From contig JBBSQY010000001.1 in NCBI GenBank assembly GCA_038243585.1, forward strand, positions 64,001-128,000: DNA of 64,000 nt, read 5' to 3'. Each line of letters begins with the position of its first letter. Position 1 is the first letter of the stretch. Below the pieces are notes generated by a model. That model made no database searches, was not told where the DNA came from, and saw only the letters and a program-made list of their open reading frames with translations. The position numbers were made by a program, and so were the translations under genes. This document shows positions 996 to 30,969 of the stretch, in pieces. The DNA is from Candidatus Sumerlaeales bacterium. GTDB taxonomy: Bacteria > Sumerlaeota > Sumerlaeia > Sumerlaeales > Sumerlaeaceae.

Positions 996-2096
996 ATGAT
1001 GATCGATAGAGCATGGTTTCGCTTGGGTTTTGCATGCTGCGTGGCGGTGAGTTCTGGTTTTTCCGGGGCTTGGGCGGCGGGGTTTGTTTTGGATGGACAA
1101 CTTGTCGTGGCTGATGCGGCGACGTCGCGGGTGGTGGAGCTTTCGGGTTCTGGCGCGCGATCGGTGGGGGGCGAGGCTGAGCGGGTTTCGAAGTATTGGG
1201 GCGCGTTGGGCGATGGCCGTTTGCTGGTTACGCTGGAACATTCTCATGAGGCGGTTGCCGGGACTGCGAATGCCGTGATGGATGCCGTGGATGAGGCTGT
1301 ACCGGGTCATACGTGCTCGACATCATCGCCTGGGGAGGCGGCTGTTCTGGTGAACGCGGACGGGTCTCGAGGGGCGGCGGTTTGTCCGGATGTTTTACGG
1401 GCTTATCCGGCACCGGTGGGTAACCGGATTGCGATTATATCTCCTGAACGGGATTTGCAGCTTTGGGATGATGGCGAACTGACGACGGTGACGGCTCCGG
1501 GGCGGGTGAGTAATGCGGGGTGGTCTCCGGATGGGCAGCGGCTGGTGGTTTCTGTTTATCCGCCGGACTGGTCGGAGGGAGCGGTGAGCAGCGCCCTGAC
1601 TACGGCAGAATTTTTGCGGCTCCAGAATGCGGATTTGTATTTGTATGATGTGGCGCGGGGTGAGTTTGTCTCTCACCTTACGGATAATCCGGGTACGGAG
1701 TATGGTGCTTTCTTTTCTGAGGATGGACGGTCGCTTTTTTATATCTGGCTGCATCTTACAGAGGACATTGGCGGGCTGATGCGGATGGAACTGGACCTGG
1801 ATGATCGGACTTCGGCTTCGACGCCGGCGTTGCAACTGACGCAGGCAGGTGAAGATATTGGCGAGACGCCGCTGGGGCGGGTGGGCACTTATGTGTGGAC
1901 TCGGGACAATAACCAGCTTGTGTTTGAGGCGGGGCGTCCGGATGGGTCGGGGGTTATCTGGGCAATGGCGGCTAATGGCCAGGCCGCTGTAGCTGTGGCC
2001 GCGGGACGAACGCCGCAGCGACTCTCGGACCGGGAGGTCATCTTCCAGGATGGCCTTGGGGCTATTCAGGTCGCCACGCCGGAGGTGCAGCCATGA
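996..2096 (+). CDS. Secreted TolB-like (PD40/WD40-like) beta-propeller protein
   Basis: Signal peptide ending AWA; PD40-like motifs WSPDGQRLV and FSEDGRSLFY; LYLYD...LTDNPG; ATGA overlap with the next gene. Confidence 0.75.
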   Translation: MMIDRAWFRLGFACCVAVSSGFSGAWAAGFVLDGQLVVADAATSRVVELSGSGARSVGGEAERVSKYWGALGDGRLLVTLEHSHEAVAGTANAVMDAVDEAVPGHTCSTSSPGEAAVLVNADGSRGAAVCPDVLRAYPAPVGNRIAIISPERDLQLWDDGELTTVTAPGRVSNAGWSPDGQRLVVSVYPPDWSEGAVSSALTTAEFLRLQNADLYLYDVARGEFVSHLTDNPGTEYGAFFSEDGRSLFYIWLHLTEDIGGLMRMELDLDDRTSASTPALQLTQAGEDIGETPLGRVGTYVWTRDNNQLVFEAGRPDGSGVIWAMAANGQAAVAVAAGRTPQRLSDREVIFQDGLGAIQVATPEVQP

Positions 2097-4153
2097 AGCA
2101 TTTTAACTTAAAACCGGCCACGCTGGCTCCCGCATTTGCGGCGGCGCTTTGGGCTTTTTGTGCCGCTGGTCATGCGGCTCCGGCGGAGACGGCTCCCGCA
2201 TTTGGATGGCCTTTTGGCAGTTCAAACCGTTATGTGACGGCTGCCTTTGATCTTGATCGCGCCACCGGATCGCAAGCAGACTGGACCGGATGGTTTTCTG
2301 GCGAGGCAACGGCGGGCTCTGGTCATGCGTATGATAACCATGCCGGCCATGATTACGGGATGCCGACCGGAAGTGACTTGTATGCCGTGGCCAACGGCAG
2401 GGTCAACGCTATCCGGGAATCGGTTCCCAATGATGATCACAGCGATACGGGCAACTATCTTATTGTTGATCATAAGGCCGCCACTGGCACAGCCGTGGGA
2501 GGAAAAGATTATCGCAGCCGCTATTGGCACCTGGCGCAAAACGGGGTGATTCCGAGTGCCGTTGGCACGGCTGTGACTAAGGGGGCGCAGGTTGCAGATT
2601 CTGACAATACAGGCAATTCCACTGGCCCTCACCTGCACTATGGGATCTCGCTGTTGCCGAGCGACCAGCTGACCTGTGCGTTTTATCATGGATGGTGGGA
2701 AAATGATGAGTTTTTCACCCACACTACGCGGCCTTGCATCGTGTACCTGAACACAGGATCGGATTTTTTGAACTGTCGGGAAGGGGCGTCTGCGGGCTAT
2801 AATATTATCACGTCTTTTCCGCCGAACACTCAGGTTGTGGCCACCCAGCAAAATAACTGGTGGCGGGTGATGCTGCCGCTGCCGCCGGCATCGGTGGGCG
2901 AGTCCAGAACCGTGGGCGGTGGGTTGGCCAGCGGTTACAGTGAGGCAGGCGTCTGGTCGAATTTGGCTGAGAAATCTGGAGCGGTGAGCGCAACCGATGA
3001 CGATCCGAACCGGGTCATTCTCGAAGGGGCGGGAAGCCGGGCTTCGACGTTTGCCACCACAGGGGACGCGGCCGACTTCGCTACGTTTAATTTTACGATG
3101 CCGTACCAGGCGGGTTTGTATGATGTTTATGCGACCTGGCCGAAGCAGGCTAATGCCGCCAATGTAACCTATCGAGTGGCTCACGCGGGCGGAACGACAG
3201 ACGTTCCGGTTAATCAAAATGGTAATTTGCTGCCGGCGGGCATCGGAACGAAAGCGAATCCGTACCTGATCGCAAGAAATCCATTCGTGGTGAATCACAC
3301 CACGGTGGGCGCTCCTGATGAATGGAATCTTTATACGCCGGAGGGAAGCAATCTGCCCCAGCAAGGGCCGGAAAATCTTTACAAATTCACGCTGACAAAA
3401 CCCGGTACCGTAACTGTGACGGTGGATCATGCAGGATATCCGACGAAGGATATTGATCTGCACCTGCTGAGTTCGGCGAACCCGGCAACGTGTTTCCTGA
3501 GGGCGAACTGGACCATGACTACGACCCTGGCGACGGGGACTTATTATCTGGCGTGCGATTCCTATGGCACTGGCGCGGCTGGTGAATTGGCCGCAAGCCC
3601 CTATAAACTGACGGTTTCGTTTTCTGAAGATCAGCCTTTTCCTGATAGCTGGGTTAAGCTGGGACAGTTTAACTATACTGCCGGCGCCGCGGGCAGTGTG
3701 CAGGTGCGAGAGGCGGGGGTAACGGGTCGGATAGATGGGTCGGTTCCCGGGCAGGTCGTTGCGGATGCCATTAAGCTGGTGCCCCGGATTACTCGGCGCA
3801 CCGGCTGGATCAGCAATGGAATCGCAACGCGGATCAACACCGCCACTACTCCGGTGTCCAGCGTGTTGATCAAAACCGACGCCACCAGCCTGGGTGATTC
3901 CAACGATATCAGTGAGTTCGTGGAAGTGCCTATTTATACGCAGGCGGGCATCGGACAGGACAATCCGTCGCCGCTTGCAGGGAAGGCAGTGACGGGCCAG
4001 CGTTTCGTCTGCACGGGGCGCGCCGGGGACTGGTACCGGGTCAGTCTGACTAACGGCACAGCAGCCGCCAGCGGTTGGATACTGGGTGACCATCTTATTG
4101 GCTGGAACATGAACCAAGTGTCCGAAGTCCAGGAGTGGAGCCTCTACGATTAA
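2093..4153 (+). CDS. Secreted M23 metallopeptidase with SH3b, golvesin-like and PPC-like accessory domains
   Basis: Signal peptide; M23 Zn motifs HAGHD (HxxxD) and STGPHLHY (HxH); SH3b motifs LNCREG...WWRV and DWYRV...GWI; golvesin-like YDVYATWP...VPVNQ...WVKLGQF...VVADAIKL. Confidence 0.85.
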   Translation: MKHFNLKPATLAPAFAAALWAFCAAGHAAPAETAPAFGWPFGSSNRYVTAAFDLDRATGSQADWTGWFSGEATAGSGHAYDNHAGHDYGMPTGSDLYAVANGRVNAIRESVPNDDHSDTGNYLIVDHKAATGTAVGGKDYRSRYWHLAQNGVIPSAVGTAVTKGAQVADSDNTGNSTGPHLHYGISLLPSDQLTCAFYHGWWENDEFFTHTTRPCIVYLNTGSDFLNCREGASAGYNIITSFPPNTQVVATQQNNWWRVMLPLPPASVGESRTVGGGLASGYSEAGVWSNLAEKSGAVSATDDDPNRVILEGAGSRASTFATTGDAADFATFNFTMPYQAGLYDVYATWPKQANAANVTYRVAHAGGTTDVPVNQNGNLLPAGIGTKANPYLIARNPFVVNHTTVGAPDEWNLYTPEGSNLPQQGPENLYKFTLTKPGTVTVTVDHAGYPTKDIDLHLLSSANPATCFLRANWTMTTTLATGTYYLACDSYGTGAAGELAASPYKLTVSFSEDQPFPDSWVKLGQFNYTAGAAGSVQVREAGVTGRIDGSVPGQVVADAIKLVPRITRRTGWISNGIATRINTATTPVSSVLIKTDATSLGDSNDISEFVEVPIYTQAGIGQDNPSPLAGKAVTGQRFVCTGRAGDWYRVSLTNGTAAASGWILGDHLIGWNMNQVSEVQEWSLYD

Positions 4154-4614: not shown

Positions 4615-4693
4615 GATGGCTGGCAGAGAACGGTGTGCGGCTGAATTAACGCATAGGCTATTCAATAATGACACCCCAAGAGGTACCATATTT

Positions 4694-4915
4694 ATGAGCC
4701 TGGAACGCATAACTGTCGACCCGCATCAGTGTGGTGGTCGTCCATGTATTAGAGGTCTACGTATTCGCGTAAAAGACATACTGGAACTTTTGGCCGCAGG
4801 CAATACGCCTAAGGAAATTTTAGAAACATACCCATACCTGGAAGTTGACGACATCCCTGCGGTTCTTGAATATGCTGCCCGACAGGTAGACCATCCGATT
4901 TTAAGATCAGCCTGA
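4694..4915 (+). CDS. DUF433-family antitoxin (VapB45-like)
   Basis: RITVDPHQCGGRPCIRGLRIRVKDILELLAAG...EILETYPYLE is a typical DUF433 signature. Start moved to the ATG at 4694. Confidence 0.9.
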   Translation: MSLERITVDPHQCGGRPCIRGLRIRVKDILELLAAGNTPKEILETYPYLEVDDIPAVLEYAARQVDHPILRSA

Positions 4916-4919
4916 AACC

Positions 4920-5249
4920 GTGGATTTTTTAATCGACGCCCAACTGCCTCCCGCACTAGCGGATTGGCTGGCGGCGGAGGGGCATCACGCCGCGCACGTT
5001 GTTGATCTTGGGCTGATTGCGTCGTCGGATTCGGAAATCTGGAATTACGCTGCCCGCAACAACCAAGTGATAGTGACAAAAGACGAAGACTTCGCCATAC
5101 GCGCCATCCACAATTCCGCTGGCCCGCCGATCGTTTGGGTGAGAATAGGCAACTGCGGCAACAATGCGCTGCGTAAATGGTTGATTCCGCTTTTTCCTCT
5201 GGCTGTCAATGCGTTAGAGTCAGGGGAGAAGCTTGTTGAGCTAGCTTGA
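4920..5249 (+). CDS. DUF5615 PIN-like toxin (VapC45-like)
   Basis: FLIDAQLP...DSEIWNYA...VIVTKDEDF carries the acidic PIN residues; directly downstream of the DUF433 gene. Confidence 0.9.
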   Translation: MDFLIDAQLPPALADWLAAEGHHAAHVVDLGLIASSDSEIWNYAARNNQVIVTKDEDFAIRAIHNSAGPPIVWVRIGNCGNNALRKWLIPLFPLAVNALESGEKLVELA

Positions 5250-22191: not shown

Positions 22192-25100
22192 CTAATCGCC
22201 GTAGGACGCCCAGGCGTTTACTGTCTGTTCATTACCTGGATTATTAAAGACTGTCGTCACTGGCACATAAAAGCTCGCGCCTTCCTTGACATTGTACACG
22301 TACCCTTTACTGTAATCGGCAGAATTAACGAAGCCCCTCGCGAAGGTACCCGGCCCGCAGGTAATCTTCCACAGCTCGCCGTCCCGCTGAACGTCCATGA
22401 TATCGTAGCACGCATTGCGGACGCCGTCATTGGCGAAGATAATTTGCGATCCTTTGATCGTATCCGGATCGCCTTCGGATATCTGCACCCACGCAACCGC
22501 GGGTACATTTACATTTTTTTCAAATCGGACCAGTGTACCTGCAATATTGCCAGTCCCCGCGACTGCTTTGCCTCCAAAGCTGAGATTCGTGCCCTGGGTA
22601 AGGCTGGCGCTGGTGATCTTTCCGTCTGAAACGCGAAGCCAGGCGTAGGCTCCGTCGGTAGCGATTCCGCCGCTTGCCTGCACGCTTTTTCGGGTTGGAT
22701 TGCTGATGAAATAATCTGTCGTTCCGCCGGCCAAGTCCACCTTTACGGCCACCACCTCCGCGGAGTCTGGCGTTGTTATCGGCAGACGCGTTACGTTTTC
22801 CACAAACGGCGTAGCCTTCCAAGGTTCTGCCACGGAGACGAACTGTGACGACAACGCGGTCGAACTGGCACGATGAAGCAGGGCATAACGCATGAGTTCG
22901 GGATTGCCGGGCTTGTTCTGTGCGGGCACTCCGTCGGCCAGGGCCACGTCGGTCAGCGCCCCCACAAAATGAAGGCGCATGTGGATATCATCCGTGGTCT
23001 TTACTCCGCGATAACCTGTGTCCGCTTTCCAATCGACCTTAAACGATGTCGCCGGGGCAACTGAACGCTGGACATTTTTAAGGTAAGAATACCCAAACGG
23101 GTGGGCGGTGGAATTATCGCCATACGCCACAGTTGGTCCGGCATAGGTGCCCGTGGTTTGGCGGTTCAGCGACATCCCGTCTAGTGTAACAGCGCCGGGC
23201 GGCCCATGAAAGCTCATTAAATGGTCTGTGCCGCCAGATACGCGAAAAATGTCCACGGCGTAAGCATTGCCATCCGGCGCCTCAACAAACGAAATAGTAC
23301 GCGCGTATTCCGTGCATTGCGGATACACGTTCTTGCTTTGAACCTCTGCCACGCCGAAACCGGGAGCGGCGCCGTAAAAGCGAGGGTAACCGGTCCAGTT
23401 TTGCGTCTGGATTTTCTTATCAACCACTACAGTGTTATGACTTAGCGTGTTGTTGTTCCAGGCCGCGCGCGGCTTGTATGTCGAGCTGGCGAAATCCGGA
23501 TATCCCAGGTCGGGCGTCAGGTCGGTGTTAAAGGCATAAATGCTATAGTTGAGTCGATCCTGGTGTCCATGGCCTTTGTTGCGGCCATAATACATCCACA
23601 GCGCCTTGCCCGCGGCAGTATTACCAAACTCGAAGCTCGCCAGGCCGTAGCCGGCCATGTTCTCGCCGAATCGCGGCGCGCCGTTATAATTAAGTGCCGC
23701 CTGCTCCAGACGTTCGTTCATTACGTCCGGAGTCGTGCTGCCGACGTCTGTCAGCAGGCCGGTAGATCGACGACCATTTGCTTCCCAGGCATACCTTGCT
23801 GCTGTCTCATCGCCAAAAAACTCATAACCCGCCGCCAGCACATCTGGGCTTATGCCTGGAGTTATGGTTCCGACCGCCCCGGTGTCGCCGATATTAGGCA
23901 TAAAAGTGTTAAGAGCCTGCACCCGCCAAGGCGCGCGAAACGCGTTGCGGAAGTATGGAAAGTCTCGGCTGATTCTGTTTTTTGTGTAGGAAGAATATGG
24001 CTCCAGAATATCCATGATTTCTTTAATTTTCCCGGGCCATAAATAACAATAGCCCGGAGCAGCCTCATCCGCCATACCGTCGCGATCAAACAGCTCGATC
24101 ATCATCTTAGGAATGTGGCCACCGTCGGCTGCGAAAATCCAGTCCAGCCACTGCGACGTCTTCGGCTCCGTGTTCAATGCCAGAGCTGCGCATGCCATGC
24201 TGCTCTGGTGCATGCCTTCGTTTCCCTTAATCTGGCCCGAAATCAGCGCCGCCGCAGCGGTATTCAGAACTCCGGAATCGATGTTGGTTACGAGCGCCGC
24301 GCGGGTGCCTTTGACTCCGGGCAGATTGAATTGTTGATCTTTAGCCTGCAGAAAAGCGTACAACTCGGGGTTTTCCACCGTACCGCTAATAATCCTGTCA
24401 TAGGCGCGGGCCAGTTGCTGGACGGTTTGTGTCTCCCAAATTCGGCCTTCGATTTTACCTACCCGGTTGCCACCATCGCTATGATACCATCCGCGATCGG
24501 CGTAAGGTTTCCAGTCCATCGCGGGATAAACATCCGCGATTCGGTCCATCATGATTGCTGCCTTACGAGCATACATTTTGTCGCCGCTGAACACATAAGC
24601 CTCGCTGAGCAAAGTCAGGCCGGACAAGATATGACGCCAGTATTTCCACGCGTAATAGCCGATGAACTTGTGTTCCCGTCCGTTAACATCTACATAGCCA
24701 TACCCGTCGTCCACGCCATACTTGTGTAGCGGGTCGGCAGGGTTGGGATGGGCCGCGTTAAACAACAGCGAACTGTCCGCCGTTGTCCGATTAAACAACC
24801 CTTGCCCGTCAATACCACTTCGATAATATTGTTCAAAGTCATTGGTGGGAAACACAACAGCGCAATTAGGACAGGTCAGCTTCCACGGCTTGGTTTCAAA
24901 GTCTGGCGTGTATGGATAATTGCCATATTTGGCTATTTCAAGTCCGCAGTTCAAACAGCCGAGTTGCAGTTTCGACGGGAAGTCGTAGTCCCAGGTCACA
25001 TCAATAGTGCGGGGCAATTGCTGCCCCGGTATCATGGCCCAGAGCTCCTCGTCGCTTTTTGCGGCCCACGGGGCGGCAGCGGAGGTAGCGGCGTCGCGCT

Positions 25101-25278
25101 GAACACCAACCCAATCTACCGTATTGGCATTGTTCCTGGTATTTTGCAGCCGTTGTTCCGGATACATCCCGCCGAATTCACGCTGTGCCGTCAGTGCGCC
25201 GGGCATTAAAAATAGAAATAGTAAAACTCCTGATAGTTTATTGCTTGTAAGCCGCATATTGATACTCCTCATTTTCAC
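22192..25278 (-). CDS. Secreted heparinase II/III-like polysaccharide lyase
   Basis: GHGHQDRLN, DLGYP, TLSHNTVVVD, Y.RTI...YAVDIFRV.GG are Hepar_II_III-type motifs; DGMADEAAPGY; signal peptide. Confidence 0.8.
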   Translation of the reverse strand: MKMRSINMRLTSNKLSGVLLFLFLMPGALTAQREFGGMYPEQRLQNTRNNANTVDWVGVQRDAATSAAAPWAAKSDEELWAMIPGQQLPRTIDVTWDYDFPSKLQLGCLNCGLEIAKYGNYPYTPDFETKPWKLTCPNCAVVFPTNDFEQYYRSGIDGQGLFNRTTADSSLLFNAAHPNPADPLHKYGVDDGYGYVDVNGREHKFIGYYAWKYWRHILSGLTLLSEAYVFSGDKMYARKAAIMMDRIADVYPAMDWKPYADRGWYHSDGGNRVGKIEGRIWETQTVQQLARAYDRIISGTVENPELYAFLQAKDQQFNLPGVKGTRAALVTNIDSGVLNTAAAALISGQIKGNEGMHQSSMACAALALNTEPKTSQWLDWIFAADGGHIPKMMIELFDRDGMADEAAPGYCYLWPGKIKEIMDILEPYSSYTKNRISRDFPYFRNAFRAPWRVQALNTFMPNIGDTGAVGTITPGISPDVLAAGYEFFGDETAARYAWEANGRRSTGLLTDVGSTTPDVMNERLEQAALNYNGAPRFGENMAGYGLASFEFGNTAAGKALWMYYGRNKGHGHQDRLNYSIYAFNTDLTPDLGYPDFASSTYKPRAAWNNNTLSHNTVVVDKKIQTQNWTGYPRFYGAAPGFGVAEVQSKNVYPQCTEYARTISFVEAPDGNAYAVDIFRVSGGTDHLMSFHGPPGAVTLDGMSLNRQTTGTYAGPTVAYGDNSTAHPFGYSYLKNVQRSVAPATSFKVDWKADTGYRGVKTTDDIHMRLHFVGALTDVALADGVPAQNKPGNPELMRYALLHRASSTALSSQFVSVAEPWKATPFVENVTRLPITTPDSAEVVAVKVDLAGGTTDYFISNPTRKSVQASGGIATDGAYAWLRVSDGKITSASLTQGTNLSFGGKAVAGTGNIAGTLVRFEKNVNVPAVAWVQISEGDPDTIKGSQIIFANDGVRNACYDIMDVQRDGELWKITCGPGTFARGFVNSADYSKGYVYNVKEGASFYVPVTTVFNNPGNEQTVNAWASYGD

Positions 25279-30285: not shown

Positions 30286-30969
30286 TTACTTGGTGCGGTA
30301 AGTGTCACCGGTAGAAGCTGTTCCATTAGTTGCATCATACGTGTAGGATTCTGAGCCACTTGGCGTACCAGCTCCACCAGTCGGAGCTGTTCCGACAGTT
30401 GGACCAGTGATCAGGAACGAAGACGGCAATGATTGGCTTCCACGAACGAAGGATTCAGCAGATTTACCCTGGTCAAGCTGATCTTTGGTGTCTGGGCCTG
30501 GGCTCCAGATAAGAAAACCAGCAGGGCCTGATGCGTAGCTGAAAGTTGCCTGCTTAATCTGTCCAAATGTGTCCGGAACATAAGTATTTAGATATGACAC
30601 AGGAGTCGTCAGACTGATTGGCGGAACTGTACCGGCAGCATTTTTCTTAGCAAAGCTAGGAAGGGTCGTATACGGATTTGGACTTGGGACCGGGTTTTGC
30701 AAAGCGGCTATAGCTGAGTTATAAGACTCAGAAACACCAGCTGGAGCTACGTATCCTGCGGCAGCGGTGAAAGGATAGTGCAGCGGATAAGTGCTGTTAT
30801 CAATCTGATACGTTTCCAACGCCGTAGCATAGGTTCTCTGATCGCTCAGCACGCGTGCGATTTTCGCGCGGGTCTGGGCCTCCAGGAAGTTTGGTACTGC
30901 TATGGCTGCCAGAATCGCGATGATTGCCACCACGATTAGGAGCTCAATGAGCGTGAATGCTTTTTTCAA
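30286..30969 (-). CDS. Type IV pilin / pseudopilin-like protein (prepilin N-terminal methylation motif)
   Basis: MKKA|FTLIELLIVVAIIAILAAIAVPNF; WSPGPD; strong RBS AAGGAGG before a TTG start. Confidence 0.92.
   Translation of the reverse strand: MKKAFTLIELLIVVAIIAILAAIAVPNFLEAQTRAKIARVLSDQRTYATALETYQIDNSTYPLHYPFTAAAGYVAPAGVSESYNSAIAALQNPVPSPNPYTTLPSFAKKNAAGTVPPISLTTPVSYLNTYVPDTFGQIKQATFSYASGPAGFLIWSPGPDTKDQLDQGKSAESFVRGSQSLPSSFLITGPTVGTAPTGGAGTPSGSESYTYDATNGTASTGDTYRTK

Follow-up and report, generated by a model that had tools for sequence, protein, structure and literature searches.

Two exported proteins encoded in a 64-kb stretch of genome G000, an M23 peptidase and a heparinase II/III-like lyase, end in C-terminal tails that resemble each other. 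The question raised by this locus is whether such a tail is a signal and, if so, where it would send the proteins that carry it. The stretch (C1:64001-128000), which is referred to in its full length as the window, belongs to a genome of 3.43 Mb on 99 contigs with a G+C content of 52.5%. We found that tails of the same kind form a tag that marks approximately 2.5% of the proteome. The tag is very likely a real sorting or address signal that acts after inner-membrane export, and its predicted destination is probably beyond the periplasm, with the proteins being secreted or placed at the surface. On balance, we favor the reading that both window tails represent weak copies of an address tag, modular and at the extreme C terminus, which would send folded exported proteins across or onto the outer membrane.

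A nine-residue tag at the extreme C terminus

Open reading frames (ORFs) were called naively, and the non-shadow ORFs of at least 80 aa (n = 2,757) were compared with shadow ORFs (n = 5,700) as a control. The pattern W..Y.{0,2}$ closes 71 of the non-shadow ORFs versus approximately 4.5 expected from the internal frequency of W..Y, which corresponds to an approximately 15-fold excess. Among the shadow ORFs, it closes only 3. One of the 71 tails, on a lactate permease, is a chance match. Aligned on the tryptophan, the tails show residue counts of S37/A16/T15 - x - V46/A13/I9 - x - D41-W-x - L41/I9/V7 - Y, and the consensus of the tag is nine residues long, [STA]-x-[VIA]-x-D-W-x-[LIV]-Y-COOH. The tyrosine is the last residue in 47 of the 71 tails, and one or two more residues follow in the other 24, mostly a single E, D, N, or Q. 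Immediately upstream of the tag, there is an excess of Pro, Gly, and Thr.

The nine-residue motif lies zero or one residue from the C terminus 62 times, once at 4 residues and once at 6, and it is internal only 5 times in 1.03 million positions. Likewise, a back-translated search for D-W-x-[LIVMF]-Y-stop gave 32 matches in G000 versus 3 for the reversed-pattern control. Such pattern counts catch only the commonest form of each of the two dialects of the tag described below. No other enriched C-terminal pattern was found in this genome.

A preliminary description of the window had proposed the motif V-x-x-W-x-x-Y-(x)-D, counted two instances, and suggested a proteome scan for occurrence above background, which the approximately 15-fold excess bears out. 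The W..Y core of the proposed motif stands, but its register does not: the conserved Asp precedes the tryptophan, and the trailing D or GD is optional. The count of two is correct within the window, where no ORF with a tag-like tail was found besides the peptidase and lyase genes, but the genome holds approximately 70.

The two window copies and their orthologs

The peptidase gene (positions 2093 to 4153, plus strand) encodes a multidomain protein of 686 aa with the domain order Peptidase_M23, SH3_3, Golvesin_C, and PPC (Pfam), followed by a C-terminal SH3-like domain (predicted fold) and the tag; NCBIfam gave MepM/ShyA-like matches below the cutoff. Its tail, SEVQEWSLYD before the stop codon (4121 to 4153, plus strand), has E for D before the tryptophan and one extra D after the tyrosine. 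The lyase gene (22192 to 25278, minus strand; 1,028 aa; Pfam Hepar_II_III_C) ends in QTVNAWASYGD before the stop codon (22192 to 22227, minus strand), in which A replaces D, S replaces L, and GD is appended. The translations thus confirm the original observation that both proteins end in a related motif. Measured against the genome-wide consensus, both tails are degenerate members of the tag set, that of the lyase strongly so. Sec signal peptides had been attributed to both proteins, and signal-peptide-like N termini were indeed recognized by sequence reading and our own heuristics in the peptidase (MKHFNLKPATLAPAFAAALWAFCAAGHAA; 2093 to 2179, plus strand) and in the lyase (…NKLSGVLLFLFLMPGALTAQ; 25186 to 25278, minus strand).

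Orthologs of the peptidase were found in 14 of 41 relatives. All seven readable orthologs from the same family have the tag at the end. It is canonical in five of them (…SGVMDWSVY, …AGVDDWTLY, …AGVSDWSLY, …SSVEDWSLY, and …SGVTDWSLY) and degenerate in two (…EWQLYD and …EWENY). As seven of seven same-family orthologs are tagged, the window tail …EWSLYD is a genuine, slightly decayed copy of the tag. Close homologs of the lyase were found in a single genome of the same genus (G002), where one ends in …TAFNSTGK at the domain boundary without a tail and one ends in …DVPEWQPYQVH. Because these ends are untailed or degenerate, …NAWASYGD of the window lyase is a marginal, possibly decaying copy. G002 has two or three copies of the lyase gene (C316: L156 and L159; C337: L160), two of them in tandem, and one lyase-gene match in this genome is broken by TAA.

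Tagged proteins and their export

Signal peptides were scored with one crude and one stricter heuristic test of our own. The crude test was positive for 58 of 71 tagged ORFs versus 1,146 of 2,757 ORFs (p = 3e-12), and the stricter test was positive for 38 of 70 versus 444 of 2,757 (odds ratio, 6.7; p = 1e-13). The enrichment on signal-peptide proteins for which the preliminary description had called is therefore evident in both tests. Several of the leaderless tagged ORFs sit at or close to contig ends, and their starts have therefore probably been lost there. No lipobox was found on the 70 tagged ORFs scored.

Tagged proteins appear to reach the periplasm mostly by Sec and, in one case, by the twin-arginine translocation (Tat) pathway. 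The single Tat cargo is a DUF1501 protein with a twin-arginine leader (RRQFLK) and a degenerate tag, …VKGWNQYG. Two overlapping adjacent tagged genes, for a DNRLRE/CBM96 protein and a DUF1501 protein, lie at G000:C34:31483-33596 (L037 and L038).

The tagged proteins have a median length of 534 aa versus 323 aa for all ORFs, and Pfam domains were found in 40 of 59. Pfam and NCBIfam assignments include glycosidases (GH43, GHL10, and NAGPA), proteases (S8, M12, and trypsin-like), and nucleases or phosphatases (Exo_endo_phos and Metallophos). Other cargo proteins are BNR sialidase-like, glucose/sorbosone dehydrogenase, ice-binding, FG-GAP, Kelch, and ELWxxDGT repeat proteins. Judged by these assignments, the repertoire would fit extracellular or surface proteins and not periplasmic housekeeping ones.

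The tag as a flexible addition

The last domains before the tag differ among cargo proteins (Golvesin_C, GH43_C2/DUF1349, LTD, P_proprotein, CarboxypepD_reg, TIG, Flg_new_2, GSDH, and others), and in an alignment of 30 tails, conservation is limited to the last ~10 columns. The tag is present on 16 of the 120 best database homologs of one GH43 cargo protein (L016). Untagged homologs stop 0 to 8 residues past the common last strand (…FDYFrΦ), whereas tagged ones run approximately 12 residues past this strand. In an AlphaFold2 (AF2) model of L016 based on an 80-sequence alignment, the mean predicted local distance difference test (pLDDT) score is 95.2 and the last strand spans residues 514 to 524; the tail is without secondary structure, and its pLDDT drops to 51. 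Similarly, in the model of the M23 peptidase (13 orthologs; mean pLDDT, 69.7), the last strand spans residues 668 to 671, and residues 677 to 686 have a pLDDT below 50 and no secondary structure. These models suggest that the tag is a flexible tail appended after whichever folded domain comes last. A structural strand of the last domain, the objection considered in the preliminary description, is thus contradicted by the diversity of last domains, by the unstructured AF2 tails, and by the untagged GH43 homologs, which stop before the tag. Overall, its proposal of a sorting signal was largely right, as enrichment, the link to export, and modularity all support it.

Different tails were observed on other GH43 homologs (P0019, P0021, P0031, P0035, P0040, P0041, P0048, P0049, P0059, P0060, P0069, and others). 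Homologs from other lineages, some of them named Planctomycetota/Phycisphaerales, have the recurrent C-terminal extension …GPxLGxPSxP[RK][PR], and a further group ends in …IEPxxxxAxR. These endings may represent further lineage-specific tails.

A second dialect of the tag

Orthologs of the M23 peptidase in other families end in …VVPVELSVFSAD and …VVPVELSIFAIE (family f15) and in …SIPAELTVLTAD (family f3). In place of the tag described above (dialect A), they show a second form (dialect B), namely, …VPVELSVFSAD, …VPVELSIFAIE, and …IPAELTVLTAD. The consensus of dialect B is [VIL]-P-[VA]-E-L-S-V-F-x-x-[DE]-COOH. A back-translated search of 75 genomes for P-x-E-L-[ST]-[VI]-Φ-x-x-[DE]-stop gave 19 and 10 matches in the f3 genomes G014 and G023 and 7 and 2 matches in the f15 genomes G040 and G036, versus 0 in the controls. 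Dialect B was absent in 68 of the 71 other genomes, with a single match each in G050 and G029. All 30 of the dialect B loci that were read are ORF ends in [TVA]-[VIL]-P-[VA]-E-L-S-V-F-x-x-[DE]. The V, I, or L at position -11, which lies outside the search pattern, is conserved in all 30, and in each of them three further residues come after the aromatic. Signal peptides are visible wherever the locus includes the N terminus.

The two dialects align as acidic-Φ-x-Φ-aromatic (D-W-x-L-Y versus E-L-S-V-F). Family f1 uses dialect A only, f3 uses dialect B only, and f15 uses both, and the M23 orthologs bear the dialect of their own lineage. The tag is under selection and falls into lineage dialects. 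In G040 and G036 (f15), dialects A and B occur together on different proteins. The presence of both within one genome would imply either two readers or one tolerant reader.

Taxonomic spread

The assemblies compared are incomplete metagenome-assembled genomes, and counts from related genomes are not independent observations. In the phylum of G000 (probably Sumerlaeota; 75 genomes), at least 8 D-W-x-[LIVMF]-Y-stop matches were found in 20 genomes, and the controls gave at most 5. Within the family of G000, 11 of the 12 other genomes have 5 to 28 matches, and the twelfth (66% complete) has none. The tag is also found in parts of families f2, f9, f12, f14, and f15 and in both genomes outside the class of G000 (23 matches versus 1 in the control and 8 versus 0). 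Dialect A matches were at background in families f3, f7, f8, f10, f11, and f13. Tagged ORF ends were read in G041 (16), G004 (22), G036 (9), and G013 (10). A de novo search for C-terminal motifs in the tag-free single-contig genome G021 found none enriched in a 400-kb sample (285 ORFs, ~7% of the genome). Golvesin_C, sought as a route to local dialects, was rare in tag-free families (3 matches in 5 genomes).

When 185,579 species genomes were scanned with a strict pattern, at least 116 stretches matched, and approximately 62 among the matches listed close long ORFs with full context. Named carriers among the matches listed are Candidatus Sumerlaeota, Sumerlaeales, and Sumerlaeaceae and one Candidatus Omnitrophota; similar tails had been suggested for Sumerlaeota proteins when the window was first described, and these records fit that suggestion. 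Five carrier assemblies among the matches listed fall in a second phylum (35 genomes, 4 to 8 Mb). There, the threshold of 8 matches is reached in 28 genomes (for example, 31 versus 5, 30 versus 3, and 23 versus 1 in the control). In one of its genomes, G076, 21 tagged ORF ends were read. The tag is therefore common to two uncultured phyla, and the earlier term lineage-specific has to be widened from one phylum to two.

Secretion machinery and pseudopilins

G000 is diderm, with two Omp85 homologs, and has three secretin systems: a PilMNOPQ operon, a type II secretion system (T2SS)-like cluster, and a 1,692-aa tetratricopeptide repeat (TPR) secretin. The T2SS-like cluster is complete, with GspE, F, H/I/J/K-like pseudopilins, L, M, and D. 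A 222-aa bitopic protein occupies the GspC position, between the GspM-like and secretin genes (G000:C45:14328-14996; L167:10299-10967, minus strand), and Pfam gave no match for it. A GspC-type PDZ reader was considered and rejected, as G000 has only four PDZ ORFs and the T2SS cluster contains none. The giant secretin (G000:C32:28553-33631; L168:8545-13623, minus strand) has TPR repeats (at residues ~600 to 750) before Secretin_N and Secretin. Long TPR-secretin frames (~1,200 to 1,950 aa) occur across most of the phylum, and outside the family of G000 only residues ~709 to 1150 are conserved.

Unbiased clustering of the genes within three positions of tagged genes gave only one large recurrent family, the GspG-like pseudopilins. 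These proteins of 200 to 260 aa have a near-identical prepilin N terminus (N_methyl) and a globular part that is not catalogued and contains the motifs LTTPxxYL, DPF, GPD, and YDATNGTxSxGD, and approximately 32 paralogs are encoded in G000 (e.g., L061 to L080). Among the genes flanking 38 pilin-like genes, tagged genes are overrepresented (10 of the 69 flanking genes versus 60 of 2,650 elsewhere; odds ratio, 7.3; p = 7e-6). The same holds when only signal-peptide proteins are considered (4 of 13 versus 34 of 431; odds ratio, 5.2; p = 0.02). The pairs of pilin and tagged genes occur in both gene orders, and some of the ORFs overlap or nearly abut. The same pseudopilin family is present at full length in the second phylum, where four tag-rich genomes gave at least 119 to 150 matches and the sole tag-free genome gave 41.

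One GspG-like pseudopilin paralog, recognized by its prepilin N terminus and the family motifs, is encoded in the window (30286 to 30969, minus strand), approximately 5 kb from the lyase gene and with no tagged gene adjoining. Directly downstream of the M23 gene lie two small neighboring ORFs (4616 to 4915, plus strand, 99 aa; 4920 to 5249, plus strand, 109 aa), which may be a toxin-antitoxin-like pair of the DUF433-type/PIN-like (DUF5615) kind.

How the tag could be read

After export and folding, the exposed tail would be bound in the periplasm by a receptor; since one cargo protein is a Tat substrate, the tag would be read on folded proteins. What the tail would offer is a small hydrophobic hook of the form acidic-Φ-x-Φ-aromatic, with the Y three positions after the W, and the receptor would deliver folded cargo onto the outer membrane or through it. 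The preferred candidate for the receptor is an apparatus of the type IV filament/T2SS class, with the hook being bound by a GspG-like pseudopilin surface or by a different periplasmic component of the T2SS or the secretin. The hook would then work like the aromatic terminal peptide of TcpF or CofJ in a minor-pilin pocket (see below). Recognition by pseudopilin/T2SS-class machinery, which is argued by analogy, is put forward tentatively. It is likewise possible, although doubtful, that the nonapeptide serves the type II/type IV filament apparatus as a linear C-terminal secretion signal that can be transplanted, with dialects that coevolve with their reader. In a predicted complex of the pseudopilin globular domain (residues 28 to 211) and a 40-aa tagged tail, the score was 0.02, which is evidence neither way.

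Several observations weigh against this proposal. Pilin adjacency is weaker in other genomes (2/16, 2/22, 1/9, and 0/10 tagged genes, and 3/21 in the second phylum; 8/78 in sum), and approximately 85% of the tagged genes have no pilin neighbor. Adjacency could instead reflect coregulated "secretome" or substrate utilization loci. Furthermore, none of the three phylogenetic profiles of the machinery follows the distribution of the tag. The pseudopilin family is expanded throughout the 75 genomes, tag-free families included; the N-terminal part of the TPR-secretin was detected in 70 of 75, and the GspK-like T2SS marker in 72. The pilin/T2SS candidate named in the preliminary description is therefore backed in part by gene adjacency but not by these profiles. 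Cargo proteins are as large as 2,246 aa, which is unusual for a T2SS. A PIG-L family deacetylase without a signal peptide and with a cytoplasmic-looking N terminus carries the canonical tag …TTDVTDWELY (G000:C65:12821-13591; L059). Finally, the tag has zero to three extra residues, often acidic or amide, and since up to three residues can follow the aromatic, a strict reader of the free carboxylate is unlikely.

The strongest rival explanation, which we nevertheless consider rather unlikely, is that the tag is a surface retention or docking peptide. Like a minimal dockerin, it would hold the protein noncovalently on an outer membrane protein, S-layer, or scaffold after crossing by any route. 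The cargo mix indeed resembles surface-displayed sets, with adhesin-like FG-GAP, Kelch, and ELWxxDGT proteins of up to 2,246 aa next to polymer-degrading enzymes. The predicted (AF2) tail is flexible and exposed, and as the proteins lack a transmembrane segment or lipobox, anchoring would need a peptide. The cooccurrence of both dialects in G040 and G036 is also what interchangeable docking pairs would predict. However, a recurrent outer membrane or scaffold gene was not found beside the tagged genes, where only pseudopilins recur, and nine residues are very short for stable attachment.

A site for a periplasmic PDZ protease of the HtrA/DegP-like or Ctp/Prc-like type, with the tag acting as a degron, activation switch, or propeptide to set the amount or maturation of exported hydrolases, is improbable. 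The hydrophobic or aromatic C terminus of the tag would resemble ligands of HtrA-family and Ctp PDZ domains, and elsewhere in bacteria Ctp acts on wall hydrolases, M23 enzymes included. G000 has four PDZ-bearing ORFs, but these are of housekeeping types and present in all control genomes, whereas the tag is patchy. The one to three residues past the aromatic in dialect B and in a third of dialect A fit poorly with a fixed carboxylate register, and some 70 unrelated cargo proteins and strong conservation among orthologs favor targeting over turnover. That the tail is no signal at all but a chance likeness, the last strand of a shared domain, or the remnant of a common C-terminal module is scarcely credible, because although the tag lies only 4 to 8 residues past the last β-strand in many cargo proteins and both window copies are degenerate, the tag is enriched 15-fold and nearly missing from shadow ORFs, is strictly terminal after unrelated domains, has unstructured AF2 tails and untagged homologs that are complete without it, and is swapped between dialects among orthologs.

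What selects folded proteins for transport through the outer membrane has long been debated, especially for type II secretion, and we know of no general linear signal. If the tag is indeed an address read by machinery of the T2SS class, it would be the first general linear signal to direct folded proteins into such export, and the tens to hundreds of GspG-like pseudopilin paralogs in these phyla could be explained. The tag offers a short, conserved, clearly delimited peptide found chiefly on enzymes of the extracellular class, two natural dialects, and enzymes that occur in nature both with and without it, which makes the question of selection directly testable. Secretome prediction and annotation would likewise benefit in Sumerlaeota and in the second, uncultured phylum, and if the machinery is found, the tag may serve biotechnology as a compact label for export.

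Comparison with known sorting signals

No Pfam or NCBIfam model covers dialect A or B, and no description of the tag was found in the open-access literature searched. The Sumerlaeota genomics paper PMC8092238 contains no occurrence of "secretion system," "pili," or "outer membrane." The tag thus appears to be an undescribed short C-terminal sorting-type signal. In agreement with the preliminary description, which had set it apart from LPXTG, PEP-CTERM, GlyGly-CTERM, and the type IX secretion system (T9SS) C-terminal domains (CTDs), none of these models matched the tagged proteins or tails. Two further candidates were set aside: the β-signal of outer membrane proteins (C-terminal YxF), as the cargo proteins are soluble enzymes and the hydrophobic pattern is not alternating, and lipoprotein sorting, as there are no lipoboxes.

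The peroxisomal targeting signal PTS1 (-SKL-COOH) is a eukaryotic tripeptide with a strict free carboxylate that is read by the TPR domain of PEX5. Like the tag, it is ultrashort and lies at the extreme C terminus, and it targets folded proteins across a membrane. A difference is that the TPR-bearing giant secretin does not track the tag.

The small tripartite sorting domains cleaved by sortase-like enzymes comprise LPXTG/sortase, PEP-CTERM/exosortase, GlyGly-CTERM/rhombosortase, and MYXO-CTERM/myxosortase, according to a preprint on these systems (bioRxiv 10.1101/2023.06.07.544157). Like the tag, they are lineage-specific C-terminal signatures on many unrelated signal-peptide proteins and are found by the same comparative logic. 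However, they consist of a motif, a transmembrane helix, and a basic cluster, whereas tagged proteins stop 0 to 2 residues past the motif in all 71 of the 71 cases retrieved with the W..Y pattern and are without a transmembrane segment. NCBIfam CTERM models gave no match to 20 dialect A and 10 dialect B tails (E of ≤10). Among curated models, NF053834 (ultrashort_CTERM) and NF050076 (sort_motif_YLP) likewise describe very short putative sorting motifs of 10 to 11 positions. Neither turned up in the scans of the tails; across the whole G000 genome, NF053834 had no match at an E of ≤10, and NF050076 had one subthreshold match, in a 25-aa frame away from tagged genes.

The T9SS CTDs (type A, TIGR04183/PF18962 Por_Secre_tail, and type B) are similar to the tag in being C-terminal, restricted to certain lineages, and present on a few percent of the proteome. 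Their cargo also consists of glycosidases, proteases, nucleases, and adhesins with Sec signal peptides. However, a T9SS CTD is a folded β-sandwich of ~70 to 100 aa, and the tag comprises approximately nine unstructured residues; no T9SS CTD match was found in 62 tagged proteins (NCBIfam, E of ≤0.05; Pfam).

A functional model is offered by CofJ and TcpF. An N-terminal aromatic peptide of CofJ from enterotoxigenic Escherichia coli reportedly docks on the minor pilin CofB. In Vibrio cholerae, an N-terminal Phe1-Tyr5 hook of TcpF is described as binding the TcpB trimer and acting as a secretion signal (PMC9565799). These signals differ from the tag in lying at the mature N terminus, after signal peptide cleavage, and not at the extreme C terminus, and in serving one dedicated cargo protein per pilus system versus approximately 70 for the tag. 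Pilin binding has been demonstrated for the TcpF/CofJ type, whereas the tag is connected with pilins by gene adjacency only. Like the tag, the TcpF/CofJ signal is a terminal peptide, short and flexible, of a folded protein exported by Sec, and its key pair of aromatics a few positions apart resembles the W and Y of the tag. Furthermore, its cargo genes adjoin pilin genes, and it relies on an apparatus of the type IV filament/T2SS class, to which the candidate reader of the tag also belongs.

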